This document shows positions 1 through 59,103 of a stretch of 64,000 bases of DNA, in pieces. A program made the position numbers and the translations under genes. The first letter of the stretch is position 1, and the number at the start of each line of letters is the position of its first letter. Below the pieces are notes generated by a model. It had not been told where the DNA came from, did not search any database, and was given only the letters and a program-made list of their open reading frames with translations. This DNA is from a virus: positions 65,482 through 129,481 of IMG/VR virus record IMGVR_UViG_3300042448_001253; one strand, given 5' to 3'.

Positions 1-3000
1 CAAACCAGTATTCATCAAGACCACGGGGAACTTCAAATGCAGTAGAGCCCTTAGGTATAGATATTGACCAAAAAGACCCACCAAATTGTCCGGAGTCGCT
101 ATTAAACGAGGTTTCGCTATATGTATCGTCCGAGTATCTGTAAAAACTACTTCCGGCGAAATTTTTTGCCGCTATCTCCGGTTCTGAACTAGTAGATGTG
201 TAAGAAACATTAGAAACTACGCTACCAGGTTCTAAGTTTTCCAACATCTCGTAGTACTTAAGTTTTTTCTCGGTATTCTCCGGAGGGGTCATTCCTCTAT
301 ATACAACCCCATCCTTAGCGTATTTATGTTTTTTAAGAACTTCATTTAATTTACTAATCTCGTTATCTAAAAATTCAGATTTAGGCTCCATGTTATTTAT
401 TAGATATTCATTAATCTTTTTATAGCCCTCGCCGGTATAATATTTTATAGCTGCTTTTTCTTCAGGAGTAAACTCTTTTAAATCGACGTCCGGAGCACTT
501 CTAGGGAGCTTATAGGTATCAAAAATAAATTTAGATAAGGACTTATCAAAAATATCGGACTTGCCTTTAATTCCAATACCGTCTACGATTTCCCAGTTGC
601 CGGCATTAATTTCTTGTAAAGCTTTAGCTGCCTCTCCTCTAGTAGAAGCACTACTAATTGCATCCTTAGCCTTCTGAGATATCCACGGAATTTTAGACTC
701 AGACATTCTTTGAAGTGCTTTTTGTTGGTTTTCAGTTATAGGATTGTTAGGGTCAACAGCAGCCTTGAACTCAGCCATGCGTTCTTCATAACGCTTTTGC
801 ATTGCAGGGAAATCTAGAAGACTTAGGTCTTGATTATCCTCGTTTGCAGCACGGTCAATAATCTTTGAGACAAGGTTGTAGGAGTCTTCTGCGTCGCCAT
901 CAGCTGAGTGCCAGTTAGCAGGTTCGAAACCTAGGAAGTTAGCAACAGGACCGAGGCTAGATGTAGCCTTGATTTCTCCAGTCTTGCGGTCAGGAGCTTT
1001 TGGACCGTCGATGCCCTTCTCTGCGTCATACTTAGGGAGAAGTGAGGCAAGGTCTTTAGAGTCAATGGTTCCAGCAATATCTAGGTCTATGCCTGACTTG
1101 TCGGCCATACGCTTTAGAATCTCAATGTCAAATGGAACGTTCTGACCACCTAGAAGAGCGTTAGGTCCGATAAACTCGATGAAGTCTTTTAGAGCCTGCT
1201 CTTGGCTACTTTGCCTTGATAGCCATTCGGAATCTACAAGCTCCTGCTTAAATTCATCATAGTCATCTAAAATTCTGTTACCTTCGGAATCTAAAACATC
1301 ACGTTTTAAATTATTAGACGACCATTCAGAAAGCCTGCTCTCTGGGTTGATGTAGACATTAAAACGCTTTACAATTTTGCCGTCTTTAACTTGAACTGCA
1401 CCAAGCTGAACTGGGTCGTTAGTGATATCTTGACCGTCGTAATCAGCAATACCAGTTGTCTCAAAGTCGAAGTAAGTTACTGTCTGACCCTTTAGGCGTT
1501 CTTGAACTTCTTTCCAATTCTTAGCACCCTTCATAATGTCTTGGAACTTACCGGTAAAGGCACCTGGAGTAGGTAGGCGAGTACCGCTAGCGTCCATAGT
1601 TGCTGACTGGAAGTCAATGCCTAGGTTGTCTAGAGAGCTAGGTATAGTTTGAGCTTCGGCGTCGGGGGCTGGCTTAGATTGCTCTGTTTGAGGAGCGTCG
1701 TCTAGGACAACTTCGGCCTCAACGTAAATCACATCAGATTTCTCTATGCTATTAATTCTTAGTTTAGAGCCTCTAGGAAGAAGAAACTCTGCCTCATCAA
1801 AAGTACTAGGAGTGTACTTATAAACTCTAATCATTTTAGCCCCAGCAGGCACCGTAATAGTTAGATAGGCCGGTCTGCCTTCTTTAGTAGCAACCGCAAA
1901 ATTATTTGCTGTAGTCAACGAACTAGTAGTAGACATATAGCCAGTCTCTTCATAAATATCGCCTGGGGATAGCCTTGAAAAAATAGATGCTGCCTTACCG
2001 CTTATACCTCTGTTTAAGAATTTAGGAACAGTTGTAGGCTCTTGTTTTTCAAAAGCTGAATCAATATTTGCAATGTCGGATTTAGCTTTTTTAATTCCAG
2101 GTACGCTTACATCAGGTTTACGTAAAACCTCATTTATACTAATGTACCCTTTGCCCTTATATGAAAGCAAAGCTTCTTTTTCTTCGTCTGTTAGCTTATT
2201 TTCTGGCTTATCAAAAAGCTCGTCGGTGCCGTTCATAACAGCAGGAGTAGCCTCAACTTCGGTTAGTCCGTTTTCTTTGAGATAGTTCTCTATATAGTCT
2301 AAACCACGTAAAGCATTTCTTGTATCTTCTAAATACCCTAAAAGCTCTGCCTGAGCCTTCGGAGATTGCTCGAGCTCGTCCTGTAAATCTCTTTCAATGC
2401 TTGAGATATTGTCTTCTTTAATTTTACGTAAGCGAGCAATTCTTTCAAAGGTATAGGTAGATGGTTCATCAACAAAACCAATAGTACCTAGACCCTCATA
2501 CCAAGACTTCTTCTTCTTCTTTTCGGGAATGGCGTCAGCATCGGGGGTCGGCTTGAGCCCCTCTGCCTGAGGAGCATCCGGAGATGACTGAGCGGCTGAT
2601 TGCTTAGAGACGGACTGGACTAATCCGCTATTAGAGAGAATGTTTTTAATGCGGTCAGATGCTTCGCCTGTGGACACAAACCTAGCGACGGACTCTGCAA
2701 AATTCTCGTTGTAGTTGGAATCTCCGTATTCTCCTTTTACCCCGTTGATTTCGTTTCTATAGCTCTTTGACGAGTTGCTATTTATATGGTCATTCATATT
2801 TTGAACTGCATACATGACTTGATGGCCGAGCTCATGCTTAAGTGTTTCGGCTAGTTTGTCTAAGGAATTGTTAATACTTCTCCAGTATCTTCCAAGATTC
2901 CATATCCGATACTCTTTGTCATCAAATTTTCTAATATTAGCAAGATTTAGGTAAAGTCTTCCGTCAACAGAAGTCATACCATTATTTTTATCTATGACCT

Positions 3001-4162
3001 CCGTAATATCATCAGTACCAATTTTTTTCTTGTCCGCTTTTGATATAGGTTGGTGGTTTCCAATAATTATTTTAAGACCACCGGTTCTGTTATATGTACC
3101 TAATAAACTGTCAGTCCTCACCCCTTGCAAATTAGATAGGTTTATAACATCATTGAAGCTATTAAAGGCATTTAGAACAGTTCGCACTTCTTCGGGGGTA
3201 GCAATCAAGGATGTATCCTTTGAGTCCAGCTCAAACATTAAATCGTGTTTATTTAGAGCAGGGTCTGAGTGCTTTACAATAAAGTGTCTTGGTCTGGAGT
3301 CTAGAGCATATGCTTTGTAAGCCGCTCTTCTCTCCATACGGCCAGGAATTTTAGATATCTCATCTAAAGCATTCTCGTAGTCATCAAGAACAGGCTCCCA
3401 TCCCTCAGGTAGGTCTAGTTCCGAGGCAAGTTTTCTAACAGCTGCTTGGTGCTGCCTCATCCTGGCTGGTGTGCGGAAGAAATCTTCCCCTATATTGCCT
3501 AATCCGAATTTTTTATCTATTGCTTTTCGGTAACTTCGCACGAGCGAGGCACTTAATGCAATGCCAATCTCCGGGTCGCTTCGCCCTAGAAATTGTACGT
3601 CAACCGGAACAATCTTGGAGTTTACTTTTGCAATTTCAGCTTTAGAAAGTAGCGGCTCATTTTTTAGTCTATTTTTGAAATAATCTGTTAAGAAACTTGC
3701 ATATTTTTTAGCAAGGAATTCGTGGAAGTTTAGCTGGTTTTTCAGCGCATCCATGTATCGTTCTTTAGCTGATGCTATTGCAAGAGGGTTTTCAGGGTCA
3801 GCTTCTAACGCATCAATTAATTTTTCTCTAGCAAGTAGTGATGCTAACTCTAGGTTAGAAACATGAACAGCTTCAAAGTCAGTAATAGTTGCTAAAAGCT
3901 GGTCATCGATGTCTGAGCTAAGTTGCTTAGCCCCAACTCTCTCATTGTCATCTTTAGATGCTTCAGAGAGCGTATTATCTAACTCTTGACCAGGGTCTAG
4001 GGTAGGCGGAGCACCAGTTACGTCGTCTTCATCCGATTCGTCGTCAAAATCTACCCAAGACAGGTCGATATCTAACGGCTCATTTTTAAGAGAGTTCGGC
4101 AACTCATCCGCGTCAGGTGCAGGTTTCCCGGACGGGGAGTTACCTGCTACGCTTTTGGGGAG
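1..4162 (-). CDS. Large multidomain effector frame (>=1387 codons, runs off window; absent from ORF track): zincin peptidase + VIP2-type ADP-ribosyltransferase + DEDDh 3'-5' exonuclease + second ADP-ribosyltransferase; probably reached by -1 frameshift from 4147..8505
   Basis: I translated the frame by hand and found no stop between TGA at 4163-4165 and position 2; first ATG only at 3752-3754. Motifs: HELGH...NENFAES (~2840-2690); LTDEEKEALLSY..Y..INEVLR / NRGI / GYMSTTSS / DEAEFLLPRGS (~2200-1760); YFDFETTG / QNVPFD / WHSADGDAED (~1480-885); FTPEEKAAIKYYT..Y..INEYL / VYRGM / YTSTSS / IPKGS (~480-1). Confidence 0.85.
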
Positions 4163-4165
4163 TCA
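4111..4165 (-). other. Putative -1 programmed ribosomal frameshift signal
   Basis: In-frame heptamer C CCA AAA (4159-4153), 5-nt spacer, stem GCAGGT(4147-4142)/ACCTGC(4124-4119); loop CGTC can pair with downstream GACG (4114-4111). The 0-frame TAG is at 4149-4147 and the -1-frame TGA at 4165-4163. Confidence 0.7.
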
Positions 4166-7100
4166 GGGCCAATCAGTTTGTCGGGCTTGTAACCAATCCT
4201 CTTAATATCGCCATTAGCATCTTTATACATAACGGCAACAACTGGCTCATCTTCAGCTGTAGTTATCTTGACTTTTACTACTGAACCTAGAGCATTACCC
4301 TTGGTATCATAGATAGTGTCTCCAGCCACTAGCTGAGTGGCCTGTTTAGTTAGCCCGTTAGGGACTACTTCAACAGTCTCTGAGCTATCGTCCTGAGGGA
4401 TGCCATCGGAGCCAAGAAGTCTAATTCTTCTTTTCTCTGTACGACGAGACAAAGCTCGTTGACGTCTGTCGGCAAATTCTTGGCCACCACGCTTAAAGGC
4501 TAGAGGTACGTTTCTATCCCAGCCCGTATATTCACTTACTGGAGTGCTAGGGTCTACTATCCTCATTCTAGTCGCCGCTAGGTCAGAGTTCTCTGTACGT
4601 AGTTTTCCAGTTTTAGGGTCCAGGAACTGCATTCTAACGAAGTCGTCGTTTCCTCTAGGGCCGCTCTGTCTTCTCAGGCCTACAATGATACCGACAACCT
4701 TCTCGCCTGTGTTGGTGGTCCATTCAGCCTTGTCTCCACGCTTTGCAACTACGATACCGCTACCAGAAACGTGAGGGAATCTCATCTCGTTTTCTACTGA
4801 CCACTTCTTGTCAGCATTTTTCACGTAGTTAGTAACAATAGCGGATAGCTTCTGAAGAGCTTTAGTACGCTGAGTACCGGTAATACCGCTCCTGTCCAAA
4901 TCTTCTTTAAGCATTTGACGAAGGAACTTCATTACTATCTTTTTAGCTTCAGCACTGTCTTCGGGTAGTAGGTTCATAAGTTCTTGGAACCTATCTCTAC
5001 CATCCGTGCGGTTAGAGCTCTTCATAGCGTCTATCATTGACTGAACTTTACTACGCTCTATGTTACCGACAACTATATCTGTAGTAGTGTTTTGACGTTC
5101 AGATTCACCGTCTAGGCTAATAGCTATCTTCTCTTCTAGAGTTAGCATACGCATATCCTGTAGAGTGTGAGCAGCGTTCATCTCGGTTAAATCGCCGTTA
5201 TACTTATTCTTTAGTTCGTCCAAGATAGTAGCTTTTTGCTCTTTATTCGTCATCTTGTTGATGTCGTCTAAGGTTCTGCCCGTCTTGTTATACTTTCCAC
5301 GCCAGTATGTCATCTTGCGTTTCCAGTCGCCACCATAGTTGAAGTAGGCCTTGTCTCCAGTAAACTTATCTCCAGGATTTACCTTAGCTCCGCCTCCGGA
5401 AGCAGGTCTTAGAGTTCCAGCAAAGAACTGAGCCATCTTCTCGATACCATTGGTCTTACCATGAATAGCACTGTAAGTATCTCTGTAGTCGTGAGAGATA
5501 AAGTCTTTTACCTCTCCTGTTGCTAAGTCAGTAAATCTGTTTACAACTAAGAACTGGTTTCCAATAGTACGCTTGACGATAATCTCGTGTCTAGCCTTGC
5601 CACCGTCGATTGTTTGACGGTGAGTTATAAATCCTCCGGTAAAATCGTCGTCAGGGTCTGCTATGTAGTGACCATCTGGGTAGTCTTCTTCAAGCTGAGA
5701 CTGGATTCTATCTCCATTGGCTTCGGTGCCTCTAGCTTTATTTCCACTGCCTTTAGTTTCTTGCATTTCAGCTTCGCTACGAATAGCAGGTTTCATGTCT
5801 CTATCGTGAACTTCAGGGAGAGGTTTATCTTCTCTTACAGGGTTCTTAGCTAGGTAGTAGTCATTGACTTCATCGATAAGGTCTTGGATTTCGCCCTCAT
5901 CCTGGAAGTCGCCATCCTGCATAGCATTGTACGCATCCATTAGACGTTCACGCAAATCTTCGTCTTCAATCGGGTCGCCTGAGTCCATAGCATCTAGGTC
6001 TTCTAGAATATCCTTTTGCTCTTCAGAGATAGGGTTTCCAGTAGCATCTGCGTCCGGTCTAGGAGTTACAGGGGTAGTGTTAACGTCAGAGCCTTCTAGG
6101 AATCTCTTGCTCTTAGCTTCGCCGTTGCTATCAGTGTAGTTAACAGTAACCTTACCGTTGTCACTAGAAACACTGTCTACAGTTCCGGAGGTTCCGTTAG
6201 CGTTGTAGATTGTGTCGCCAGGAACTAGAGACTCTGCCTTCTTAGTTGGAGGGGTTAAGTCGTCTGGTCCATCAGGTCCCTGACCTCCAGGTGCAACCTG
6301 AGGGCCATCAGGAGGTCCAGGAGGGCCTGCAGGGGCTCCGGCTGGTTCTGCCTGTGGGGTAGGTACAACAACTGGTTCTGCAATTTCAGCAGGCTGAGTA
6401 GGGGCAACTGGTTCTTTAGGAGCAATTGCTTTTTCAGGCTTCGGAACCTTGCTGTATTCCTTATCTTCCATAAACTTAGTTGTAGAGACTTTTCCGTTAG
6501 AGTCTACAACTTCGGCCTTAGTGTACATTCTAAAACGATTGTCAACGCTTTTTTCTAGAATCTTTCTAACAGTTCCAATCTCGACGCCATCGGCATTCCA
6601 GACTGTGTCTCCAACTTCAATGTTGTCATGGTCAGCTGGCTTTGCGTTCTTCGGAACAGTAGCTTCTTTGGGGACAATAGTATCTGGGGTAGGGATAGAT
6701 ACTGCAGGACCTGCGGTAGGCCCGTCTTCGATAGATTCGTCTCCAGGCTCGCCATGAACGACTCTGCGGACAGAGCTGCCTGGGGATGAGTTAAACTCTC
6801 TAAAAACACCATCTCTATCTTGACCGCTGACTGTGGCAACGCCCTTATCGTTAAACTCGATGTCGTCTACCCTCATAAGTTCATCGGTGTCAGGGTTGGT
6901 TATAAAATCTCCAGGTTCGATTTGTGATACCGGAACAGGGCCCTTTTCAACAATAGGGCGGTCAAAATCTGAAGTATCTACATCAGGACCTAAGTCCTCT
7001 TCGATTGGGTCTAGAGTGACGTCACCTAATAGGTCTTCTTCGTCATCACCATCAGCTATGTCAGTTTGCACAGCATCTAGGTCTGGAGCTGGCTTTCCAG

Positions 7101-8505
7101 CCATAGCATCTTTTACAAGTCTGTCTGCTCTTCTTTTGTAGACGTCATCATTTGAAGTATTGATTCCGGCTTTATATAGAGCTTCCTCTAAAACTCCACG
7201 GGCAGAGATTAGTGTTTCTCTGTTAGAGTTTCCGTCGCTGTAGCTTAGAGGGCTACCGTCAGGGTTAGTGCCTGTTCTAAGTGGAAGAGCGTCCGCAATA
7301 TTCTGTAGTTTCTCTGAACCAGAAGTGCTTGGGTCATTAATAGCGTCTAATGCGGACTTGTAAAAGTCTGGGTTTTTAACAGCAGCTTCATTAAGAATAG
7401 TCTTCATCGCATCTAGACCCTCAGGTGAGGACAGAGCGTCTACATCTCCACTTGCAAGAGCAGGGAATCTTTGTCTCCAAGAATCTCTAGCTGCGGCTGC
7501 CTCATCGCCCATAACATCTAACGCGTCAGCGTCTGGGGTTGGCTTTGCAGCTTTTCTAGAAATAGGCTCTACACCAAAGAATTTGTCCATGACGTCATCT
7601 ACGCTGTTGTAGCCTGGTCCGCTATCAAGCTTTTCAAACATTCCGCGTGAGTTTCGTCTATCTGCAGCGGTGTCGTACTCGTAGTCAGAGTTAGCACCGT
7701 CAGCGTAAAGTTCCCACTTTCCAGCTCTATTCTGCTTTAGGCGATAATTGTTTGAGCCATCTTTGTAATCCCAGATGCCACTTCCAGGGGAAGTTTCTTT
7801 TAGGCCTTTATATTTATTTTGAGGTCGGTCTGTAGCAAGCTGGAACATGCCGCCTTCATCCCTCGTGACGCCATTCTCATCCATATATTCTTGAACGCTC
7901 TTACGGCCTTCAGCAAGGTCAGCTTCAGTTACGTCGTCTAGCTGTGCAACTGCCTTACCTTCAGCTGACTCTTTGTAAGCTGAAAGCTGTCTACCTTCTG
8001 GAGAGTTGATTCCATCATTGACGAGGCGGAGGTCGTCTTCGGTGATTGGGCTAGGGTCTAGGTCTTCGATGTTTGGAAGGTCAGGTGAGGATTCGATTGA
8101 GTTTAGAGAGTCTCCACCAGCATCCGGGTCGATTCCCTTAGAACGTAGATACTCGTCTGGAAGAGTTCCACCAATAAGGTCAACGTGCTTGGTCAGCAGT
8201 TCGTACATGCCATCAGGGATACCCTTGTCCGCCATGCCCTGAATAAGCATACGTACTGTATCTGAGCTTCCGGCAGAACCTAGTGCTCGTCCAATTACTG
8301 AAACAACCTGACCAGAGACTTTTAGGGCAGAGCGAATCTCTGCACCCATCTCAATCCACTGACCAGCACCTCTTCTACGCTTTGGAATACGTGGCTGGAT
8401 ACGCCAGAATCCCTTGTTAGCACCATCATTGAAGCCGATGCCAGCAGTGAGCGGGTTGATGTTCTCGTCGTCGCCGTTGAACAAGTTTTCTAGATAACCA
8501 GACAT
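4147..8505 (-). CDS. 1452-aa putative virion/head-associated protein
   Basis: Long ORF in the head module; N-terminal QPRIPK..GAGQW motif; acidic/Pro-rich linkers; several repeated ~55-aa units with LxPGDxI-like motif. Confidence 0.75.
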   Translation of the reverse strand: MSGYLENLFNGDDENINPLTAGIGFNDGANKGFWRIQPRIPKRRRGAGQWIEMGAEIRSALKVSGQVVSVIGRALGSAGSSDTVRMLIQGMADKGIPDGMYELLTKHVDLIGGTLPDEYLRSKGIDPDAGGDSLNSIESSPDLPNIEDLDPSPITEDDLRLVNDGINSPEGRQLSAYKESAEGKAVAQLDDVTEADLAEGRKSVQEYMDENGVTRDEGGMFQLATDRPQNKYKGLKETSPGSGIWDYKDGSNNYRLKQNRAGKWELYADGANSDYEYDTAADRRNSRGMFEKLDSGPGYNSVDDVMDKFFGVEPISRKAAKPTPDADALDVMGDEAAAARDSWRQRFPALASGDVDALSSPEGLDAMKTILNEAAVKNPDFYKSALDAINDPSTSGSEKLQNIADALPLRTGTNPDGSPLSYSDGNSNRETLISARGVLEEALYKAGINTSNDDVYKRRADRLVKDAMAGKPAPDLDAVQTDIADGDDEEDLLGDVTLDPIEEDLGPDVDTSDFDRPIVEKGPVPVSQIEPGDFITNPDTDELMRVDDIEFNDKGVATVSGQDRDGVFREFNSSPGSSVRRVVHGEPGDESIEDGPTAGPAVSIPTPDTIVPKEATVPKNAKPADHDNIEVGDTVWNADGVEIGTVRKILEKSVDNRFRMYTKAEVVDSNGKVSTTKFMEDKEYSKVPKPEKAIAPKEPVAPTQPAEIAEPVVVPTPQAEPAGAPAGPPGPPDGPQVAPGGQGPDGPDDLTPPTKKAESLVPGDTIYNANGTSGTVDSVSSDNGKVTVNYTDSNGEAKSKRFLEGSDVNTTPVTPRPDADATGNPISEEQKDILEDLDAMDSGDPIEDEDLRERLMDAYNAMQDGDFQDEGEIQDLIDEVNDYYLAKNPVREDKPLPEVHDRDMKPAIRSEAEMQETKGSGNKARGTEANGDRIQSQLEEDYPDGHYIADPDDDFTGGFITHRQTIDGGKARHEIIVKRTIGNQFLVVNRFTDLATGEVKDFISHDYRDTYSAIHGKTNGIEKMAQFFAGTLRPASGGGAKVNPGDKFTGDKAYFNYGGDWKRKMTYWRGKYNKTGRTLDDINKMTNKEQKATILDELKNKYNGDLTEMNAAHTLQDMRMLTLEEKIAISLDGESERQNTTTDIVVGNIERSKVQSMIDAMKSSNRTDGRDRFQELMNLLPEDSAEAKKIVMKFLRQMLKEDLDRSGITGTQRTKALQKLSAIVTNYVKNADKKWSVENEMRFPHVSGSGIVVAKRGDKAEWTTNTGEKVVGIIVGLRRQSGPRGNDDFVRMQFLDPKTGKLRTENSDLAATRMRIVDPSTPVSEYTGWDRNVPLAFKRGGQEFADRRQRALSRRTEKRRIRLLGSDGIPQDDSSETVEVVPNGLTKQATQLVAGDTIYDTKGNALGSVVKVKITTAEDEPVVAVMYKDANGDIKRIGYKPDKLIGPDSPKA

Positions 8506-8599: not shown

Positions 8600-9718
8600 T
8601 TAGGAAATGATTTCGTTCAGTGGAATGAAACGAGGGTCCTCATCGTCTAGGTCTTTTAGAGTCCAGTAGGTAGCAGAGAACTGAGCCCAGCGGGATGCCA
8701 TCTCTTCGGTTGGGTTAGAGATGTCTTCGCTAGCTTCCCAGTAAGAGAAATCGTTTTCCCACTTGTGGTTGCCTTCTAGAAGCTTTTCGATGTAGGAAGA
8801 TGAAGCACCAGCAAGAATAGCGGTCTGAATAGAACCTTTCTCGTCATCGTACTTTTCCATCGCACTGGCAGCAATTGCACGTAGGTCTACTGGGAACTCA
8901 GGGTCAACTAGGTTTGTAACTGCATCTTGGAATGCAGCAAACTCTGCTCTAGCGTACTCTGTGTATGGGTCTGCCGGGGCACCGCTCTCTAGTAGAGATA
9001 GGCTTCTCTGGTAATCCTCGTTCTTAGCAAGTTCACGTGCGATTCTGTCTCTAGAGTCGCCACGGTAAATCATACGAGCTAGTCTGTTCTGCTCTACGTC
9101 AAACGGGTGTGCACCAGACGCAGTTAGAGACTGCTGCTGAACAACAATGTTGAGTAGGTGGGCACGGCTCTCTTCGTAAATGTTGTCGTGGTCAGGGAGC
9201 TCAGCGTCAGGGGAAATAGCAGCAGTAAGAGGTGTGTTGTATTTGAATACTGTGTCAGCAATTTTGCCAGACGCAGTTAGTGCCATCAAACGAATCTCTG
9301 CGTGAACACGCTCGATTGAACCCTCTGGGTGTAGGTAAGCAGCAGCAACAACTGGGCGTAGCTCTTCTGGAAGTTCAGGGTCAGCTGCAACCCACTTAGC
9401 ACGCTGAGTGCGTAGTTCGTCTGTGCTTAGAACGTGCTCGCCCTCAAAGAACGGGTGGCGTGGTGCTAGTAGGTCGAAGTGGTTTACTCCGGCACTCGCA
9501 ACAACTCCTCTAGTTGCTAGGTCGATATAGTTGTTTACTTCTTTGCGGATAGCAAAGTTGCGAGCTTCAATGTTGCTGCCAGTAGTTGCAGCATACGCAC
9601 GCTTGATTACAGTGTTTAGAGCACCTGCGTCTAATCTACGCTCTGGTAGTAGACCTTCGTTTGTCGAGTTGAAAATCTCGATTATCTCTTGACGGGTTAG
9701 CATTTGGTTTTCGCTCAT
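8600..9718 (-). CDS. 372-aa hypothetical head-module protein
   Basis: ORF coupled (TAATG) to the upstream gene; N-terminal segment resembles the KAVYRRG...DLL..H segment of 9718..11562; several LTA[SA] motifs. Confidence 0.7.
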   Translation of the reverse strand: MSENQMLTRQEIIEIFNSTNEGLLPERRLDAGALNTVIKRAYAATTGSNIEARNFAIRKEVNNYIDLATRGVVASAGVNHFDLLAPRHPFFEGEHVLSTDELRTQRAKWVAADPELPEELRPVVAAAYLHPEGSIERVHAEIRLMALTASGKIADTVFKYNTPLTAAISPDAELPDHDNIYEESRAHLLNIVVQQQSLTASGAHPFDVEQNRLARMIYRGDSRDRIARELAKNEDYQRSLSLLESGAPADPYTEYARAEFAAFQDAVTNLVDPEFPVDLRAIAASAMEKYDDEKGSIQTAILAGASSSYIEKLLEGNHKWENDFSYWEASEDISNPTEEMASRWAQFSATYWTLKDLDDEDPRFIPLNEIIS

Positions 9719-11562
9719 TATAGGGTGCCTTTCTTAGGAAGTAGGTCAGCGTCAGGGCTGTTGTAAAGAGCAGATGCAAGAACGGCTGCACGCTCAAATG
9801 GGTTTTCGTTATTCTTGATTCCACGAATCCAAGCAGCACGAATTGCTGGGATGGTTTCGTATCCGAGACCAGAGTATTCCGCTAGTGCAAATACTGCGTG
9901 CTCTTGAGACTCGTACTCATCCTCAGGGAGAATGGATACAGTCAAAGCTTCTTCATACTTAGTCAAACCAGAGGCAGTCATACCTTCTGAAGACATAGAG
10001 GATTTAGAGTGTGTTGTTGGTAGTAAATCGTTGTCTGCTGTGTAGCTGCTGTTTTTTGGTTCGCCAGCTTTTAGCAAGTGTGAGAAAGCAGCAACACGAG
10101 ACATTGCTAGCTTATCACGCTCTTGGTCCGGTTTGCCAGAGGCAGCAAAGGCTCCAGCACCACGGCGATAAACAGCCTTGAACATGTCTAGGGTTGCTAG
10201 ACAGCTCTCGTCTGCTGTGGCGTTGTGCTCTACGAGCTTTTGACGTAGGGAGAGTTCGGTACTCCTTGAGTAGCGAATCTTTTTAGGGTTTGACATTACG
10301 GTCTCCAAGTTCGGTCCTTTGCTAGGTTTCTTGATGGCTCCCTTTACTAGAACTGGAAGGATGGTTCCGGCTCCTCCAGATGCAACTGCAGCCTCTTCTT
10401 CGGCGTATCTGTAAACTTTAGCTCTAATCGATTCTTTACCTTGAAGTCTGTGAGCAACTGTTCTGTGGTGGCCGTCGATAACTCGAGCCCCATCCTGAGT
10501 CATCCAAACCTTGATTGGTTTGTCAGAGTCATATACGTCTTCAACTCTACGCATGTTTACTGTTCTCTGAGTTGGGGAGAGGTCGCTAAGCTTCATGTCA
10601 TACTCGTCGTATGGCTCGTCTTCTTCGCAACGAGACTTTACTCTAGGGCTCATTTTCTTGTAAGACTTGTTGAAGTAGACGCCAGTGTTGACATCTTTAT
10701 CTTCGCCAATAGGAGCCTTAGATACGTCAACTACGCCATCCGGGATTACAGCAAAACGGCACTTGCCTTCAGACTCAACTTCAAAGTCAATAATAGCACA
10801 TTCGGAGCCGCCGCGGTAGAGAACGCAGTTCCCACACTTGACGCCCATGGAAGCGTATTCGTTTTCTGCAGCTGGCTTGTAGCCTGCCCAGATTCCAGTT
10901 CTGTCTTCGTTGAACTTTCCGTGCTCTTCAGCAATTTCGATAAGAGCATCAGCTAGGTCCCACTCTTCTTCAACGATATATCCTGCAGCAGCGATAGCCT
11001 CTTCTGCTGTCTGGTCTTCGTCTACTACAGGACCGCCGACTGCCCAGGCATTACAGGTTCTAGATGCAGCACACTTGAAGTCAAGAGCGGTGCAATAGCC
11101 AAGCTCAGCTTTGTCAATCGCACCCCAAGCACTGTCGTCTCCTGAACCACCTTCAGCGATTCCAGTTTCGATACACTCTAGGGTCTTCTGACGGATGTCA
11201 AAGAATACGCAGTTACCACAGATGCTCTTTTTAGATTCTTCAGGAGATACAGACCACTTGTCTGCTTTGTCTTGCCAGAACTCAGTGCTAGGCTCTTTTG
11301 GATTTAGAGGCCCGTAGCCAACGTTGTCAATAGCGTTTTGTCTGTTGTTGATGTTTAGAACAATGTCTTGAGTAGCAGGAGGACACTCGTCCCCGTAATC
11401 AGCGTCAGCGGTAAGTGCGGTGTCTGGTACGCAGTTAGGTACCATCTTTCCGTTCTTCTCTTTCATGCCGATTTGCTTATAGCCTTTCCAGCACGGGTCG
11501 TCCGCTGATGCGTTCATTGCATCAGGGCTAATCGGAATGCTCTCTAGAAAGTAGTCAGACAT
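9718..11562 (-). CDS. 614-aa multidomain head-module protein (PCWKGY..GMK..VPNCVP motif, two 4-Cys HiPIP-like motifs, ParB-like IDGHHR domain)
   Basis: Motifs CGNCVFF..C..C..CNAW, CGNCVLY..C..KCRF and VIDGHHRTVA are visible in the translation. Confidence 0.7.
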   Translation of the reverse strand: MSDYFLESIPISPDAMNASADDPCWKGYKQIGMKEKNGKMVPNCVPDTALTADADYGDECPPATQDIVLNINNRQNAIDNVGYGPLNPKEPSTEFWQDKADKWSVSPEESKKSICGNCVFFDIRQKTLECIETGIAEGGSGDDSAWGAIDKAELGYCTALDFKCAASRTCNAWAVGGPVVDEDQTAEEAIAAAGYIVEEEWDLADALIEIAEEHGKFNEDRTGIWAGYKPAAENEYASMGVKCGNCVLYRGGSECAIIDFEVESEGKCRFAVIPDGVVDVSKAPIGEDKDVNTGVYFNKSYKKMSPRVKSRCEEDEPYDEYDMKLSDLSPTQRTVNMRRVEDVYDSDKPIKVWMTQDGARVIDGHHRTVAHRLQGKESIRAKVYRYAEEEAAVASGGAGTILPVLVKGAIKKPSKGPNLETVMSNPKKIRYSRSTELSLRQKLVEHNATADESCLATLDMFKAVYRRGAGAFAASGKPDQERDKLAMSRVAAFSHLLKAGEPKNSSYTADNDLLPTTHSKSSMSSEGMTASGLTKYEEALTVSILPEDEYESQEHAVFALAEYSGLGYETIPAIRAAWIRGIKNNENPFERAAVLASALYNSPDADLLPKKGTL

Positions 11563-11570
11563 GGGGTATC

Positions 11571-12059
11571 TTACATGCCCAACTTAACGCTTGCACCTAG
11601 CTGCCAGTTCCACTTCTGGTGCATGTCAATGCGTCCAGCTAGTGTGTCGGCGATGCCTTGCTCGTTGCAGTTGTTTGCAACATTGAAAGCTTTCTTTAGG
11701 CACTTTAGAATAGATGCGTTTACATCGTATAGAGATAGAAGCATGGCAGCAGAGTCAGAAGAAATTCTGGCTGGCTCACGAACATCTGAAATCTCAACAA
11801 AGTCTGTTAGTAGGTACGGAGCGTCGTAGCCTAGCTTGCGAATGCTTTCGCCTAGCGGGTCAATAGCACTTTCGTAGTCTTCGTAAATCTCTCCAAAGAA
11901 ATCGTGCAACTGAGAAAACTCGATGCCCTTTACATTCCAGTGGTAGCCCTGAGCAATGAACTTAGCAAGTACTGTGCTGCTTAGGCAGATAGCAAGATGC
12001 TTAGCTAAGTCGGTATTACCTTTGTAATCATCGTTTAGTTCTAGGTCTAGATTATTCAT
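11571..12059 (-). CDS. dps: Dps / DNA-binding ferritin-like protein
   Basis: GYHWNVKGIEFSQLHDFFGEIYE...D..GESIRKLG matches the Dps signature; 162 aa. Confidence 0.9.
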   Translation of the reverse strand: MNNLDLELNDDYKGNTDLAKHLAICLSSTVLAKFIAQGYHWNVKGIEFSQLHDFFGEIYEDYESAIDPLGESIRKLGYDAPYLLTDFVEISDVREPARISSDSAAMLLSLYDVNASILKCLKKAFNVANNCNEQGIADTLAGRIDMHQKWNWQLGASVKLGM

Positions 12060-12062
12060 TTA

Positions 12063-13853
12063 TTACTCCTGAAGGATTGGTTCGGCCAGTCCTGGAGGAG
12101 CTGGCGGAGCGGCTACCGGAGCGGCTGGCTGTTCGGTAGGTGGAGTTGTCGCTTCTGTAGCTGTAGGCGTAGGTATATTGCTAGGGGTAGCAGGGTTTAG
12201 TAAGTTCTGAATCTCTGGCGGCACTGGTGCTACGGAGTTCTCCTGAGCCTTTGCACGAGTAGCTTCCATAATAGATGGAGCAACTACACCAAGCATTGCC
12301 TCAGTAAGTTCAGGTGTGATAGCACCCTTGTCGATTACAAGACGAAGTGCAAGCTCTAGTGGGCTAGGTGCGTCTTGGTCTGAGAACCCGTGAGCACGTC
12401 TCCAAGTGTCGTAGCTAACAGCCATCTTGCCAAAGCCGTTGTCAGCGTCTGCTGCACGGTCATTACGAGTTGCAACCTGTGATGGGTCGTACCAAATAAC
12501 AAGGCGGTTTACTTCTGACTCTGGGTAGCCTAGAGAGATTAGGTAAGGGCGTAGGTAGACGACAGTAAACGCATCTGAGATAAGAAGCATCAGCGGTTCG
12601 ATGTGTGCCTTGTATAGGCTCTCGTCAATCTGTAGGGCGTTTGAGTACTTGACGTTAGCTAGACCTGAAACGATATCCTTAGGAACATCTAGACCTTGCA
12701 TGATGCGTTCTAGAACACGCTCTGAACGCTCAGCTAGGGATGGGTCGAATGAACGCTCAAACTTGAACTGCTTGATTTTATCGCCGAGCTCAGCAGGTCC
12801 ACGAATAATAAGTGGCACAACTGCGGACGCTGAATCCTCGTCCTTGATAGGAGTAAGCATTGCGTCAATAAGTTGGTCTTCAAAATCGTCAGCAGCTTCT
12901 TCAGCGTTGTACTGTTCGTTGTAGTTGCCTTCTTCGTCGTAAGGGTAGTCAGGGTCTGGAGCAGATGCAACAGAAAGACCATCTGGTAGATACAAAGCAC
13001 CAGCGTTCAGACGTGAGCGGGCAGTCGCACGGAAAGTGCGGTTTAGAAGTAGTAGTTCAGCACAAAGGTCTAGAAGACCACGGAGGCTTGAATCTGATTC
13101 TTGGCTGTAGCGTGGGTGTGATTTCCAGATACGTCCGATGAAAGCATTGTTCGGTAGGCGGATAACATCAGCACCACCAGTCGACATCATAGATGAACCT
13201 GTAGAGATATCTCTACGAGGGTTGATGATGTAGTTTCCCTTTTGGTCAATCTGAAGTTCGTCAGTTGAGCGGATGTCCCAGCTCTCAGGAAGTCCAGTAC
13301 CGATTCGCTCTGGAACCTGAACTAGGTAGCACTCACCTGTAACCTGTAGGTTTAGGGCACAGTCCTTTAGCAGACCTGCCTGACCTCCGTAGGCTGAGTC
13401 AAGACGCTCTAGTGCACGTTCGGCAGCTGCAGCTAAGTCTTTATCAACAACGTTCGATTTGCGAACAGTGATAGGAGCTTCTGATGGGTCTTCAACAATC
13501 GCAGCGTAAAGACGGATACGAGATACAACTGAGGCAACAAGGTTGAATGCGTACTTGACTTCACCAATAGCGTCATAGTACTCCCACGCTTCAGTTTGCC
13601 AAGCTGTCGATGCTGCTTGACGACGGGACTTGAAATATTGTGCCTCACCCTTGTCGTTCATCTTGATTTGAACAGCGGCGGCAGTTAGAGGACGTGGCTG
13701 GTTGTAGCCAGCAGGTTGTGCGTAAACGATTCCGAAAGAATCTACATAAGGAGCAGGGGATACTGGTCTAGAGCCTGGAGCAGATGCTCTTAGCTGAGGT
13801 CTAGCTTGCGCTTGGCGTGGTTCTTTACCTGGTTCACGCTTGAAAATGCCCAA
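12063..13853 (-). CDS. Portal protein (actinophage type)
   Basis: 596 aa, downstream of TerL; W.YYDAIGEVKYAFN..ASVVSRIRLY N-terminal segment and Pro-rich tail as recalled for actinophage portals. Confidence 0.7.
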   Translation of the reverse strand: MGIFKREPGKEPRQAQARPQLRASAPGSRPVSPAPYVDSFGIVYAQPAGYNQPRPLTAAAVQIKMNDKGEAQYFKSRRQAASTAWQTEAWEYYDAIGEVKYAFNLVASVVSRIRLYAAIVEDPSEAPITVRKSNVVDKDLAAAAERALERLDSAYGGQAGLLKDCALNLQVTGECYLVQVPERIGTGLPESWDIRSTDELQIDQKGNYIINPRRDISTGSSMMSTGGADVIRLPNNAFIGRIWKSHPRYSQESDSSLRGLLDLCAELLLLNRTFRATARSRLNAGALYLPDGLSVASAPDPDYPYDEEGNYNEQYNAEEAADDFEDQLIDAMLTPIKDEDSASAVVPLIIRGPAELGDKIKQFKFERSFDPSLAERSERVLERIMQGLDVPKDIVSGLANVKYSNALQIDESLYKAHIEPLMLLISDAFTVVYLRPYLISLGYPESEVNRLVIWYDPSQVATRNDRAADADNGFGKMAVSYDTWRRAHGFSDQDAPSPLELALRLVIDKGAITPELTEAMLGVVAPSIMEATRAKAQENSVAPVPPEIQNLLNPATPSNIPTPTATEATTPPTEQPAAPVAAPPAPPGLAEPILQE

Positions 13854-14180: not shown

Positions 14181-14540
14181 TTAGTCTCTGTTCGATGCTA
14201 AAGTCTTGTACGGATTCCAAGAACGGAGGCGTGAACCACATCCGCAAGAGGAATCACGCTTGAATGCAACCATCTTACCGGACTTTGTTACGAGTCTGTA
14301 GGTTGGGTCGTTCGGATGGTTAGTCAAAAACATGTCGTAGTCCTCTTGGAACACGATTTTTGGCCCTTCAGGGCTGTCAATGGCAACAATTACGGTGGTT
14401 TCAGTCAAAACTACCCTCGCAGTACCCACGTAGTAGACGTTTTCCTGCTCTGCGTTGGCATAAAGGGTCTCTATGTTGTCAACTACGCCCGGAGCGGCAA
14501 AAGTGGAGTGTGCAGGGAAAATATCCTCAATAATACGCAT
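14181..14540 (-). CDS. Hypothetical protein (CGCGSRLRSW motif)
   Basis: ORF coupled to TerL by TAATG. Confidence 0.7.
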   Translation of the reverse strand: MRIIEDIFPAHSTFAAPGVVDNIETLYANAEQENVYYVGTARVVLTETTVIVAIDSPEGPKIVFQEDYDMFLTNHPNDPTYRLVTKSGKMVAFKRDSSCGCGSRLRSWNPYKTLASNRD

Positions 14541-15928
14541 TATCTGACCCTAAAAGTGCTGCTAGAACCTGGCATACGCCTGTTTGCCATCGATTTTGCC
14601 CTGATTTTGCCTCCTGAGAAGCCTGGTGGTGGCTTAATAAGCAGTGCAGTAAGGGCGTGAACGAGTGCATCGACTCGGTCAGGGGATTTTCCTTCGCCTG
14701 GAATCCATGTAATCATCTGAGTTTCGAGGTCCATCATCGAACGGCCGACGTGGTGGACTCTTTCTTGGTCGTAAGCCATCGTAATTGGCTCTGCACGGAG
14801 TGCTTTACCCTGTTTCGAGTGAACTTCGAGCACTTTGATGGTCGGGTCAATGGTATTGATAGCGTTTCTAACTAGTGCACCACCCTGATTTACCTCGGCA
14901 ACAACAGGACAACCCCATTTACGGGCCATTTCAACGACTTTACGAGCCCAAACTTCAGGAGAACCGTGAATAGAAGCGTCTTCTAGAACCCAAGCGTTGC
15001 GTTTGTAAAGGTCATGTTCTGCTGTAGAGGCTACAACAACGATTCCGCACTCGTCTCTAGGGTTTTCAGCAACGGATGGGTCAACGCCGATTACACGCAA
15101 AGGTGTAGACATAGGGTAGGCAAAGTGTCTAGATGCCTCAATGGACTCTTCTGTCCACATCGCACCATCTCTAGCCTCAAGCATTTCACCGTAAAGCTCT
15201 TGACGAGCAAGGGCAGTACCCTCGTAAACGCCGAGCATGGTGTCGAGGTAGGCTCCGGAGAGGTTTCCTGCGTTGTCCATGGTAGAACCCTTAGTAATGA
15301 CAACCTTGCCATTTTTAGATTCTTCAATAAGTTTGTAGAGTAGTGGGGTTCGCTTAGGGGTAGTTGTAACTAAAATCTTTGGCTGAGCACCAAGACGAGT
15401 TCCAACACGCAAGTTATCAAAAGCAGTCATACCTGCAGCATCCGGAGTTTGACGCCAAGCTGCAATCTCATCGCCCCATGCGTGAGTGAACTGAGGTCCA
15501 CGGAGAGAGTCTGGTTCGTCAGCAGTAAATAGCGAGGCAACGTTTCCGTTCGGCCAGGTTAGGCGTCTCTTAGATGGCTCGTAGAGTGGACGTTCGCTGG
15601 GTGGGGTGACATTCATAATACCAGATTCACCTTCAACGATAACGTCTCGCACGTCTCCAGCAGTACGGGCAACGAGAGCAAAGCGTCGCTGACCAGTTGT
15701 AGTGTATCGAGCCTGTTCACGCACCCATTCGGACGCTAGACGAGTCTTACCAAAACCACGACCTGCTAGTACAAGCCAGACGTTCCACTCACCTTCGGGT
15801 GCTTGCTGCTCAGGACGGCCCCAAACGGACCAGTCCCAGAGGAGTTGGTCTGGGTCCATGCCCGCAAGTATTTCGAAACGCTCTGCGTCTGGAAGTAGAG
15901 CGAGCTGCTCCATTATTGATTTACCCAT
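14540..15928 (-). CDS. terL: Terminase large subunit
   Basis: AGRGFGKT Walker A, LRGPQF, WGDEIAAW Walker B, nuclease GVDPS...KSPDRVDALVHA. Confidence 0.95.
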   Translation of the reverse strand: MGKSIMEQLALLPDAERFEILAGMDPDQLLWDWSVWGRPEQQAPEGEWNVWLVLAGRGFGKTRLASEWVREQARYTTTGQRRFALVARTAGDVRDVIVEGESGIMNVTPPSERPLYEPSKRRLTWPNGNVASLFTADEPDSLRGPQFTHAWGDEIAAWRQTPDAAGMTAFDNLRVGTRLGAQPKILVTTTPKRTPLLYKLIEESKNGKVVITKGSTMDNAGNLSGAYLDTMLGVYEGTALARQELYGEMLEARDGAMWTEESIEASRHFAYPMSTPLRVIGVDPSVAENPRDECGIVVVASTAEHDLYKRNAWVLEDASIHGSPEVWARKVVEMARKWGCPVVAEVNQGGALVRNAINTIDPTIKVLEVHSKQGKALRAEPITMAYDQERVHHVGRSMMDLETQMITWIPGEGKSPDRVDALVHALTALLIKPPPGFSGGKIRAKSMANRRMPGSSSTFRVR

Positions 15929-56047: not shown

Positions 56048-56266
56048 ATGGAACTAGGCCAAAAAGAGCTTTTAGAAGCACTTATAGAGAGAGTGAATCT
56101 CTGCTCTGAGGTCGTCCAGAACGTCCACAAGCAACTTGAGGAACCAGAAACACCTGACGAAAAGGCTGACCTTCTTATAGCAGTAGAGTATCTCGCTAAA
56201 GATGTGTTCGCCCTATTACTTACAACTAAAGACCTTGTCTGGGGAGAAGAACCGACAGAGGAATAG
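56048..56266 (+). CDS. Acidic hypothetical
   Basis: 72-aa ORF; TATAAT at 56036-56041, 6 nt before ATG (leaderless). Confidence 0.75.
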   Translation: MELGQKELLEALIERVNLCSEVVQNVHKQLEEPETPDEKADLLIAVEYLAKDVFALLLTTKDLVWGEEPTEE

Positions 56267-59103
56267 TGCCAAAGCACAATGCTAACGAGGGAGAGCGTTG
56301 TACTTACAAAGAAACACCTAGAGACAGAAGAAGCAAAAGACCGCTGTTATTTTCCATAACAACGGCCTTTATTTTGCTATCTCCGACAGCAGCGACTAGC
56401 GTCGCCCTCGCTTCTTTGTCTTACGATACTGAACGTATGCAGCCACAAAAATCAGCACTAGGGCTGATAACCAACCAACAGTCAGTCCTACCCAAAAGCT
56501 ATCGAGATTTACTGTTACCTCGTACATCTTTAACTCCTTCCGAGAGTGATATTAACAGGATTGAGTCTAGCATAACCCAAACCCAAAAACAACTAGACAC
56601 ACTCTCTCAACAACTCCCTAAGGACCAAACCCAACTCACAGCCCTACAAGCAGCCATTGAAGTAGTTCAGGCTAGACTCGACCAACTAAACGCCAACCTA
56701 AAGACAGCCAAAGAAAACTACGCCCAATACCTAAAAGCCCAGTCCACCCTATCCTCTGCCCTAGACAAATACAATGCAGCCGTTCTCAACGAGAAGAACC
56801 TTACCCTTGCTCTAACCCAAGCAACCTTTAACTATGACACTGCCCTAGCAGCACTCAACAACCAAATAGCAATAACTGCCTCTGCCAAGGAAGCACTAGA
56901 CACAGCACGCTCAGCCTTCACCCAAGCAACTTCAGAACTAAACCAAGAACGCCAAGCACTCTCGCTTCAGGAACTACTCACTACTAATGCAAAGTCTCAG
57001 CTCGACTCAGCTTCCAGCAACAACCAAACACTAACTCAACTTTACAATAACGCAAGCGAAGCACACTCAGAAGCCCAGGCAGCACTAACCCAGGCAGACT
57101 TCTCACTAAGCCAAGCACAGGCAGCATACAACCAGGCACAGACTAATCTAAACCAGGCACAGTCAAACTACGACAACAACCTTATCCCTGACCCCAACTG
57201 GACAGCACCTACCTACCAAAAAGAGAACACCCGTTTAGTTCCTTACACCGAGATTCAGTTAGTTAGAACACTTGTTCCAAGAACCACATACATAACCACA
57301 GGCGGAATCAAAGCAGAGGTCTTCGACCGCAGAGGGTATAACAATGCCCCACCTCTACCTACTCAGAACGAAGTACCAATCCACACAGAAACAGTTCAGG
57401 AAATTAACTTCAACTGGGGTTCAGGACAGGTTCTAAACTCTGGACGCTCTGAGGATGTCATTGTTCGCTTTACTGGGAACATTATGGTTCCACAGGACGG
57501 CTACTACCAGTTCTACTCCCCAGCAGATGACGGAACCAAACTCAACATCGCAGGCATGGACCTAACCGAAGACTGGTACGACAAAGGCGGAGGCGGAACT
57601 ATCTCTGACCCAGTATTCATTAGAGCAGGAATCCTCTACCCATTCACCCTCCACTACTACGAAAACGGAGGTGGTGCTAATGTCTCCCTCCAGACCTACA
57701 GCCCACAGCAAGGGTTCAACGTTCTACCATCTACTTGGCTAGGTACATCAGTAAGGGAAGAAACAACTTACGAAGAAGTCATTACTTACGAAGAAGTTAC
57801 CAAGTACAGAGAAGAAATCTACTACACCACAGAACCAGTCCTTATCGAAGGCACCCTCCAAGTAAAGATTAACGAAGGCGGCCAAGCAACCTTCACGGCC
57901 CCAGAAGGCTCAACCTTTACAAGAAGCAACCTACGCTACGAGGCAGTTGACCGACCAGAGTGCGGCGTAGACATCAACCCACCAGTAAAGGGCCAAACCC
58001 AAGTAACCATCTCTGCCGACAACTCAGTCTGGGGTGACCCTTGTGGTGGCTGGTACAAGCACATCACAGGAACCATCTCCTACCTTGGACAGCCAACAGC
58101 CCCACTCATCAAGAACCCTGCTCTACTTGCACCTCTACAAGAAGCACAGGTTGCTAAAGACTTAGCACTACTAAACCTCCAGCAAGAACAATCAAAGCAA
58201 GAAGCGTCTCAGGAGAGTTTTAGCACTGCCACCCAACTTCTCACTAACGCACAGGAAGCACTAAACAACTCAGATGCTGCCCTGGAAGAAGCAAATCAGG
58301 CTTATTTAGAAGCTCAAACCCAACTTTCTACTAACAAATCTAAAGTTGCAGAAGCAGAACAAAAAACGAATACAGCACAAGAAGACTTATCTTCTAAAGA
58401 GTCTGCCCACACTTCTAACGAACAAACCCTACTTACTAACCAACAAACAGAGCAGTCAGCCCTAGCAACTAAAACCTCCACCGAAACTCAACTATCTACC
58501 GCTAAGTCCATAACAATAGCAACCTCCACTGAAAAGACCGCAGCCGAAGCACAACTGACTACAACTGAAACAGAAACAGCAACTGCCTACCAGACGCTCG
58601 CAACCATACCTCTACCTGACCTAACACCAGTCCAGCAAATCCTAGACATAGAGCCAACCCCAGAACCAGAACTAGAAGAACAGGGTTCAGCAGAGATTCC
58701 AGCAGTCATTGAGAACCTAATGGACATCAACCTTGAAGCCGTTGACCCTACAGAACTGACCGAAGCACAAGCAGAACAACTAGTAGCAGCAGCCCTAGAA
58801 ACCTTCGAGACAGCCACAGAAGGCTCACCAGAGTACGAACAGGCTCTCGACGCTCTATTCCTTGCAGCCCAGCAAGACGACATAGAGGTTGACCCTGCAC
58901 TAGCAGACATCCCAGGAGTTGGACAAGCAGCCGCTGCAGTAGTTGCAATCTTCAACTTAGTTGGCAACGTTGGTGCCGACATCTCCCCAGAGAAACGCAA
59001 AGAGGCTCAGACCCTCGTTGTAACCACCCTAGTTGTTGGGCAGATAGCCCAAGCTGCTGCAATGGCTTCAGCCACATCAGCAAGTTCATTTAGAAGAAAG
59101 TAG
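56266..59103 (+). CDS. 945-aa exported/membrane coiled-coil protein with PA14 domain
   Basis: N-terminal hydrophobic segment; long heptad regions; INFNWGSG...VRFTG.I..P.DG.YQF....DDG..L...LHYYENGGGA (PA14); C-terminal hydrophobic helices. Confidence 0.8.
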   Translation: MPKHNANEGERCTYKETPRDRRSKRPLLFSITTAFILLSPTAATSVALASLSYDTERMQPQKSALGLITNQQSVLPKSYRDLLLPRTSLTPSESDINRIESSITQTQKQLDTLSQQLPKDQTQLTALQAAIEVVQARLDQLNANLKTAKENYAQYLKAQSTLSSALDKYNAAVLNEKNLTLALTQATFNYDTALAALNNQIAITASAKEALDTARSAFTQATSELNQERQALSLQELLTTNAKSQLDSASSNNQTLTQLYNNASEAHSEAQAALTQADFSLSQAQAAYNQAQTNLNQAQSNYDNNLIPDPNWTAPTYQKENTRLVPYTEIQLVRTLVPRTTYITTGGIKAEVFDRRGYNNAPPLPTQNEVPIHTETVQEINFNWGSGQVLNSGRSEDVIVRFTGNIMVPQDGYYQFYSPADDGTKLNIAGMDLTEDWYDKGGGGTISDPVFIRAGILYPFTLHYYENGGGANVSLQTYSPQQGFNVLPSTWLGTSVREETTYEEVITYEEVTKYREEIYYTTEPVLIEGTLQVKINEGGQATFTAPEGSTFTRSNLRYEAVDRPECGVDINPPVKGQTQVTISADNSVWGDPCGGWYKHITGTISYLGQPTAPLIKNPALLAPLQEAQVAKDLALLNLQQEQSKQEASQESFSTATQLLTNAQEALNNSDAALEEANQAYLEAQTQLSTNKSKVAEAEQKTNTAQEDLSSKESAHTSNEQTLLTNQQTEQSALATKTSTETQLSTAKSITIATSTEKTAAEAQLTTTETETATAYQTLATIPLPDLTPVQQILDIEPTPEPELEEQGSAEIPAVIENLMDINLEAVDPTELTEAQAEQLVAAALETFETATEGSPEYEQALDALFLAAQQDDIEVDPALADIPGVGQAAAAVVAIFNLVGNVGADISPEKRKEAQTLVVTTLVVGQIAQAAAMASATSASSFRRK

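Follow-up and report, generated by a model that had tools for sequence, protein, structure and literature searches.

We analysed a 64,000-nucleotide (nt) stretch of viral DNA, positions 65,482 to 129,481 of the IMG/VR record IMGVR_UViG_3300042448_001253 (hereafter the window, to which all coordinates refer unless a homologous locus is named), with attention to the junction of two long open reading frames (ORFs) read on the minus strand. The upstream frame, ORF1 (P0001, 8505..4147, 1452 amino acids), is called the carrier below. The downstream frame, ORF2 (P0002, 4153..2), lies in the -1 frame relative to ORF1, comprises at least 1384 codons, is cut by the window edge, and encodes an extension with several predicted enzyme domains. 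Comparison with related loci indicates that the end of this large head-module gene very probably contains a programmed -1 ribosomal frameshift site, which would add the enzyme extension to a minority of the product.

The 3' end of ORF1 reads TCC CCA AAA GCG TAG (4161-4159, 4158-4156, 4155-4153, 4152-4150 and 4149-4147, respectively). It contains the slippery heptamer C CCA AAA (4159..4153), which has the X XXY YYZ pattern in the ORF1 frame and is followed one codon later by the TAG stop of the zero frame (4149..4147). The assembled record at the slip site (within 4140-4170) reads CCCCAAAAGCGTAG. In the -1 frame the same region reads TGA, CTC CCC AAA AGC GTA, where the TGA (4165..4163) closes the frame one codon (CTC) before CCC, an arrangement also observed in the homologous locus L001. 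From AGC (4153-4151) the -1 frame stays open to window position 2, that is, for 1384 codons. The overlap of the two frames is only 16 nt with the heptamer at its centre, and the two stop codons, TGA and TAG, thus restrict a possible shift to the region between 4162 and 4147. The first candidate start codon of the -1 frame is TTG at 4102..4100, codon 18 past the heptamer, and the first ATG occurs about 130 codons into the frame. The 17 start-less codons before this TTG (4153..4103, SVAGNSPSGKPAPDADE), here called the bridge, hold a KPAPDAD linker at residues 10-16 of the -1 frame. Linkers of the form KP[AT]PD[AL][DE] recur at residues 327 and 477 of P0001 and at residues 534 and 827 of P0002, where they separate domains in both frames. 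All these elements had been pointed out in a first-pass annotation of the sequence and were seen again here: the in-frame X XXY YYZ heptamer at the ORF1 end, the TGA just upstream that limits the overlap to the heptamer region, the long -1 frame open to the window edge and devoid of ATG for about 130 codons (the TTG at codon 18 notwithstanding), and the KPAPDAD linker at the beginning of this frame and elsewhere in both ORFs.

Fifty-three loci were recovered from IMG/VR by a profile-guided scan. The ORF1 homologue stops 0-1 codons past an in-frame heptamer at 18 distinct loci, the heptamer being C CCA AAA in 14 cases and A AAA AAA in the remaining four. The next long ORF is in the -1 frame in all 18, the frames overlap by 13-157 nt, and the -1 frame contains no ATG, GTG or TTG for 20-144 codons, the first starts then occurring at non-homologous places. 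In L004 the stop codon of the -1 frame directly adjoins the heptamer, and this pins the site of the shift to the heptamer itself. The L001 ORF1 protein is 51-54% identical to that of the window, as is that of L003; its junction reads GGC CCT GAC GCC CCA AAA GCG TAG, the TGA of the -1 frame is the same as in the window, and the -1 frame spans 1608 codons from stop to stop. L003 comes from a separate assembly and has the same junction sequence as L001. The closest homologues of ORF1, P0003 and P0004, are 86% identical to it, and the C-terminus ...PKA is present in all seven of the closer database homologues.

A wider census was made with a profile of the ORF1 C-terminal domain against 1.84 billion protein clusters at 50% identity, yielding 154 representatives, 92 of them at E < 1e-30. 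Among the 76 representatives that match to the profile end, 59 stop 0-2 residues after PK, PKA, PKKA or LKKA, and 17 continue in frame. No matches were found when ORF1, ORF2 and two other ORF1 C-terminal domains were compared by megablast and tblastn with 50,697 phage records; a scan of genome contigs was equally negative, and a metagenome scan recovered only the L001 phage again.

The heptamers were tested against chance. The 18 homologous ORF1s comprise 20,596 codons, and there is no second in-frame CCCAAAA or AAAAAAA among them. Elsewhere in these ORFs, Pro-Lys pairs are written CCT AAG in 47 of 90 cases and CCA AAA in five, whereas at the junction CCA AAA is used in 14 of 14.

The region downstream of the heptamer is predicted to fold into a hairpin. 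The 50 nt past the window heptamer have a more stable fold than 98% of control segments from the same genes, the controls being segments of the same length taken every 15 nt along these genes. In the minimum-free-energy fold, hairpin A (4147..4119) starts 5 nt past the heptamer and is formed by GCAGGU (4147-4142) pairing with ACCUGC (4124-4119), with an additional inner helix CCCC/GGG; this stem was already noted in the first-pass annotation. Hairpin B (4144..4098), 8 nt past the heptamer, is formed by GGUAACU and CGUCCG pairing with CGGAUG and AGUUGCC; its outer stem is present in the centroid fold, and the pairing was read from the sequence. Hairpins A and B exclude each other. Hairpin B is the counterpart of a strong hairpin in L001, which also lies 8 nt downstream and has a folding free energy (dG) of -30.8 and a z-score of -3.96.

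A hairpin starting 5-8 nt past the heptamer was observed in 18 of 18 loci, and the median proportion of controls at least as stable as the downstream 50 nt is 0.8% for the frameshift loci (2% for the window). Conservation of the heptamer and the stem in homologues had been named beforehand as a check of the frameshift, and in these loci the heptamer, the -1 frame, the adjacent stop and the hairpin are all retained. The stems themselves differ entirely among subgroups (GGGCUG../..CAGCCC, GCCCCU../..AGGGGC, GGCUUCUG../..CAGAAGCC, GGGCCGA../..GGCCCC) and cannot be aligned column by column; a search of Rfam produced no match at the junction. The initially suggested pseudoknot of the H type, in which the loop CGTC would pair with GACG at 4114-4111, is geometrically possible. 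However, it has only 4 base pairs, it competes with the inner helix, and no counterpart of this pairing was found in L001. A pseudoknot as a necessary element was rejected since it is not conserved; every locus has a hairpin as its candidate stimulator.

The A AAA AAA loci contain Shine-Dalgarno-like sequences GGAGG, GAGG or GGAAG positioned 7 nt before the heptamer, as in sites of the dnaX type. Such stretches occur at L032:11087-11105, L036:10369-10387 and L050:10688-10706, where they overlap a conserved run of T-E-V codons, so that any role in slippage would be confounded there with coding constraint.

The start-less bridge allows one to look for traces of translation. In each pair compared, the residues of the -1 frame are conserved from the first codon past the heptamer. 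Between the window and L001, 17 of the first 30 residues past the heptamer are identical, nine of them by different codons. The bridges of L024 and L035 coincide in 36 of 37 residues, 10 by different codons, and those of L032 and L036 in 44 of 72 residues, 22 by different codons, neither of the latter two having a start codon for 74 codons. Since the residues are conserved amid many synonymous differences, the bridge is, as judged from these alignments, translated and under purifying selection at the protein level. The candidate starts are not homologous: the TTG of the window corresponds to TTA in L001, and the TTG of L001 corresponds to CTG in the window.

Natural controls are provided by eight relatives (L012, L023, L015, L027, L028, L039, L030 and L046) that have the same ORF1 C-terminal domain, ending in ...R(A/G)PK, and continue in frame for 370-570 residues beyond it. 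At the slip position seven of these genes have CCT AAG or CCT AAA and one has the Pro-Asn pair CCT AAT, all of them non-slippery. The 50 nt that follow show no hairpin and no unusual stability, since a median of 71% of controls are as stable. Thus, compared with the frameshift loci, the heptamer and the hairpin occur exactly where the frame changes and vanish elsewhere. The in-frame tails are homologous to the extensions encoded in the -1 frame: ORF2 of L010 matches the tail of L012 (E 2e-23), ORF2 of L019 matches the tail of L039 (E 4e-25), and the region of the window around a HELGH motif matches the tail of L015 (E 1.9e-10). To judge from these homologies, the joined carrier-extension protein is in all probability a real, functional architecture. 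A search for fused proteins longer than 2,422 amino acids that hold the zincin module of the window found none.

In the maximum-likelihood tree of the C-terminal domain, the fused forms occupy three separate, well-supported places, one of them sister to the frameshift locus L010, which indicates repeated exchange between the frameshifted and fused states. In the same tree the A AAA AAA loci group together as one clade.

Several other explanations of this arrangement were considered. Stop-codon readthrough was rejected, as the frames differ. One possibility is that ORF1 and ORF2 are two separate genes, ORF2 being translated from an internal start (TTG 4102) or by termination-reinitiation, and the heptamer being a by-product of a conserved Pro-Lys C-terminus. 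Indeed, the TTG lies 17 codons past the heptamer and has a weak purine-rich sequence, GGATGAG, just upstream, and gene callers list the two frames as separate proteins in public databases. However, this TTG is not conserved, and the first starts of the other loci appear 20-144 codons in, at differing places. An internal start would also leave a bridge that is conserved as protein from its first codon, and a by-product of the C-terminus would not account for the choice of Pro-Lys codons, which is invariably CCA AAA in the 14 loci with this heptamer, against 5/90 elsewhere and CCT AAG/AAA or CCT AAT in the fused relatives. Together with the restriction of the hairpin to places where the frame changes, and with the in-frame fusion of the same module in relatives, this makes separate genes a very unlikely explanation.

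Alternatively, the change could lie at the level of DNA or messenger RNA (mRNA) rather than translation. A sequencing or assembly artefact or a decayed gene, in which a one-base error or a real mutation in the A-run has split a single ORF of 2,800 or more amino acids, could be suspected because the break falls within the short homopolymer context CCCC AAAA and relatives with a single in-frame ORF exist. On the other hand, the same -1 break at the heptamer, with the stop 0-1 codons on, is found in 18 loci of many samples and in 59 representative clusters; L001 and L003, from separate assemblies, share one junction, and random indels would not keep the stop, the upstream stop of the -1 frame and the hairpin. 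We therefore regard an artefact or decay as extremely unlikely. Slippage of RNA polymerase on the A-run, leaving the mRNA with one A extra or missing, would place the shift in transcription instead of in the ribosome. Bacteria and their elements are known to undergo such slippage on long A/T runs, and the seven-A run of four loci might permit it; but the runs known to support it efficiently are far longer than the four A's that are all that is available in the window and in 13 other loci. Against this mechanism, moreover, the heptamers keep the X XXY YYZ register in the frame of ORF1, and a hairpin that it does not explain is conserved at the 5-8 nt spacing typical of ribosomal sites and is gone in fused relatives. 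We consider polymerase slippage very unlikely.

The programmed ribosomal frameshift proposed in the first-pass annotation, joining the 1452-residue protein to the effector frame, is thus strongly supported by comparative evidence. Some observations weigh against it or against parts of it. In the window the structure stands out only moderately (2% of controls reach its stability, z -2.1), and two mutually exclusive hairpins are possible. In the one subgroup that can be aligned, RNAalifold found the outer stem invariant, with no compensatory pairs. The exclusion of an indel in the window record itself is by analogy with its relatives. No MuF or capsid-targeting domain was detected in ORF1 by searches of Pfam, PHROGs, PDB profiles and the ESM Atlas or by Foldseek/VIA. 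That the product is packaged and injected is suggested only by the place of the gene and by likeness to T4 Alt and to polyvalent proteins. Finally, in some relatives the fused form is the sole product, and a low ratio of the long form can therefore not be a universal requirement. It can still reasonably be inferred that the frameshift limits the dose of toxic domains, even if a low dose is not obligatory.

The programmed frameshift would proceed as follows. Most ribosomes would read TCC CCA AAA GCG and stop at TAG, releasing the 1452-residue carrier. A fraction of them would be held by the hairpin 5-8 nt downstream, perhaps with a contribution from the stop codon close by. With the hairpin at the mRNA entrance favouring it, tandem slippage of tRNA-Pro and tRNA-Lys from CCA AAA to CCC AAA would then take place, and decoding would resume at AGC GTA GCA. 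The product would be a fusion, at least 2,835 residues long, whose junction reads ...GPDSPK-SVAGNSPSGKPAPDAD... As the gene is near that of the portal, the carrier part may bring the fusion into the capsid, and the slip rate would set the number of carrier copies bearing enzymes. The zincin peptidase or the prohead protease may then separate the modules by cutting at the KP(A/T)PD linkers that recur in the chain, and the enzymes would be injected with the DNA and act on the host.

The carrier protein has a conserved C-terminal domain of about 520 residues, ending in ...GPDSPKA, and ORF1 matched no family in Pfam or PHROGs. Two AlphaFold models (pLDDT, the predicted local distance difference test, 80 and 82) consist of several small SH3/Tudor/KOW-like barrels and helical parts. 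The best match of these models in Foldseek and VIA searches is domain I of EF-P/eIF5A (Z 8.2 over 62 residues); the fold searches also returned weak matches to phage ADP-ribosyltransferase fusion proteins. A remote relation of ORF1 to MuF may exist. In the N-terminal part (7876-8505, minus strand), the motif GANKGFW..QPR..W(I/M)EMG is almost invariant in 29 loci (GANKGFW..QPR..WIEMGA in the window). A predicted SH3/Tudor-like barrel follows this motif, which is a candidate element for docking to the capsid or the portal. It is kept even in the 3289-residue ORF of DSL-LC01, a phage considered below.

The extension begins, after the bridge, with a candidate zincin module, marked by a HELGH motif at P0002 residues 440-444 (2836..2822, minus strand, as are all features of this frame) and a subsequent ENFAE. 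It is followed by a first ADP-ribosyltransferase domain at residues 645-805 (2221..1739; PF03496, E 1.1e-37; phrog_3895), a DEDD exonuclease similar to RNase T and DnaQ at residues ~891-1138 (1483..740; PF00929, E 1e-8; phrog_192, E 2.5e-15), and a second, Alt-like ADP-ribosyltransferase region at residues ~1111-1384 (823..2; phrog_802, E 3.4e-20; phrog_26651; a second PF03496 stretch), which runs off the window. By its predicted domains ORF2 thus qualifies as a polyvalent effector as defined by Iyer et al. 2017 (PMC5512222): at least two effector domains reside in one polypeptide, which is encoded among the portal and terminase head genes. The cargo has a modular make-up. The first ADP-ribosyltransferase region of the window (extension residues ~530-710) has no counterpart in L001 (L001:12234-17060), and in L029 the exonuclease module (76% identity with window residues 836-1136) comes first in the -1 frame, the zincin module being absent.

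Upstream of the carrier, on the same strand, there are genes for the terminase large subunit (15928..14540; PF03237, PF17289), the portal protein (13853..12063; phrog_776, E 3.8e-102), a Dps/ferritin-like protein and two proteins of unknown function. The portal shares 72% identity with that of DSL-LC01, a phage assembled from a lake metagenome and predicted to infect Actinomycetia, and 58-65% with portals of Microbacterium phages; hence the window is assigned, by portal similarity, to an uncultured actinophage. In DSL-LC01 (OQ999401.1) the same slot after the portal is occupied by a single ORF (L057:20345-30214) encoding a 3289-residue hypothetical protein. By its position this ORF appears to be a counterpart; sequence similarity past the N-terminal motif is almost nil.

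The Dps/ferritin-like DNA-binding protein is encoded directly after the portal within the head module, which is an unusual place (11571-12059, minus strand; PF00210, E 3.8e-12; phrog_3636), and could be another packaged protein. A 614-residue protein encoded between the portal and carrier genes (9718-11562, minus strand) contains a weak ParB-like stretch and, at its N-terminus, a short motif matched by several PHROGs of unknown function. In L001, a gene for a LysM protein lies downstream of the extension; phrog_2859 matches both this protein and the 614-residue protein (L001:18116-21376 and window 9718-11562). The window is transcribed leftwards except for an ORF of 945 residues at 56266-59103, which is its sole long plus-strand ORF.

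Provided that the fusion is produced and packaged, the frameshift would explain how the copy number of potentially self-harmful ADP-ribosyltransferases, nuclease and peptidase is set in the virion. It would also provide a simple annotation rule for a family that is now split into two hypothetical proteins, one of them without a start, and frameshifted and fused relatives would constitute a natural experiment on the importance of dosage. The signal is short and portable.

In tailed phages, -1 frameshifting is a textbook feature of tail assembly chaperones and is known for a few capsid proteins. One of the latter is the 10A/10B protein of T7. Another is the major head protein of Lactobacillus phage A2 (Garcia et al. 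2004). In both systems, as proposed here, a -1 slip at the last codons lengthens a protein associated with the head, and a stem-loop lies downstream; A2 reportedly uses C CCA AAA as well. There, however, the shifted gene is that of the major capsid protein, with an extension that is short and structural, whereas here the upstream gene has no signature of a capsid protein and the multi-enzyme extension is 1,400-1,600 residues long. The arrangement also resembles lambda gpG/gpGT (Xu, Hendrix and Duda 2004, cited in PMC7302621), where a -1 slip at a heptamer near the end of the upstream ORF yields a majority of short product and a minority of extended product. The differences are that the present gene lies in the head module by the portal and not between tail tube and tape measure, that the ORFs are ten times larger, that the extension is an enzyme array rather than a chaperone domain, and that the sequences are unrelated. 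Similarly to the tail chaperone frameshifts, the arrangement is kept while sequences diverge, and some phages have fused or separate versions (PMC10885494). The reading of ORF1 and ORF2 as a G/GT pair of tail assembly chaperones was rejected: the gene comes after that of the portal within the head module, and ORF1 has 1452 residues, compared with about 140 for chaperone ORFs.

The extension itself resembles phage polyvalent proteins (PMC5512222), which combine zincin-type peptidase, ADP-ribosyltransferase and nuclease domains in a single chain and whose genes sit among those for portal and terminase. Packaging and injection have been predicted for these proteins, with a proposed role of the peptidase in their processing. 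Their carriers are MuF or portal domains, whereas no MuF is detectable in the carrier of the window. Frameshifting is mentioned neither in Iyer et al. 2017 (0 occurrences) nor in the paper describing DSL-LC01. A likeness to T4 Alt consists only in gene position and in the similarity to the Alt-like phrog_802, and presence in the capsid is presumed here. In MuF polymorphic toxins and MuF-VIP2 fusions of actinophages (PMC5576092; PMC7302621), a head carrier is likewise combined with a C-terminal toxin or ADP-ribosyltransferase, fused or split depending on the genome. The nearest hint to the device described here comes from PRFect (PMC10885494), which predicted frameshifts between MuF-like and VIP2 genes that were counted as false positives since the genes are fused in some genomes; this was an untested by-product of that study, made without a family-wide analysis. 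Otherwise, the literature search found no description of frameshifting with polyvalent proteins, MuF toxins or ADP-ribosyltransferases, or of CCCAAAA in such a role; a match to CCCAAAA in the paper on KS10 proved to be in a table of ribosome-binding sites only.

As far as we could find, then, a known recoding mechanism has an undescribed, family-wide role here, the attachment of a large enzyme cargo to a head-module carrier. A broader scenario, to which we give an even chance, is that this uncultured actinophage lineage loads a fixed minority of enzyme-bearing carriers into the capsid, with a self-processing peptidase and swappable enzymes of host takeover or anti-defence, for co-injection in the manner of Gag/Gag-Pol, and has toggled at least three times between the frameshifted and fused states by synonymous Pro-Lys changes together with gain or loss of the hairpin. 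In retroviruses and totiviruses, one mRNA encodes a carrier, Gag, and a carrier-enzyme fusion, Gag-Pol; their ratio is set by a heptamer and an RNA structure, and the enzymes are co-assembled. The logic proposed for the window is the same, but the likeness is one of analogy only, as the proteins, the translation system and the virus realm are unrelated, and packaging in the actinophage is presumed.

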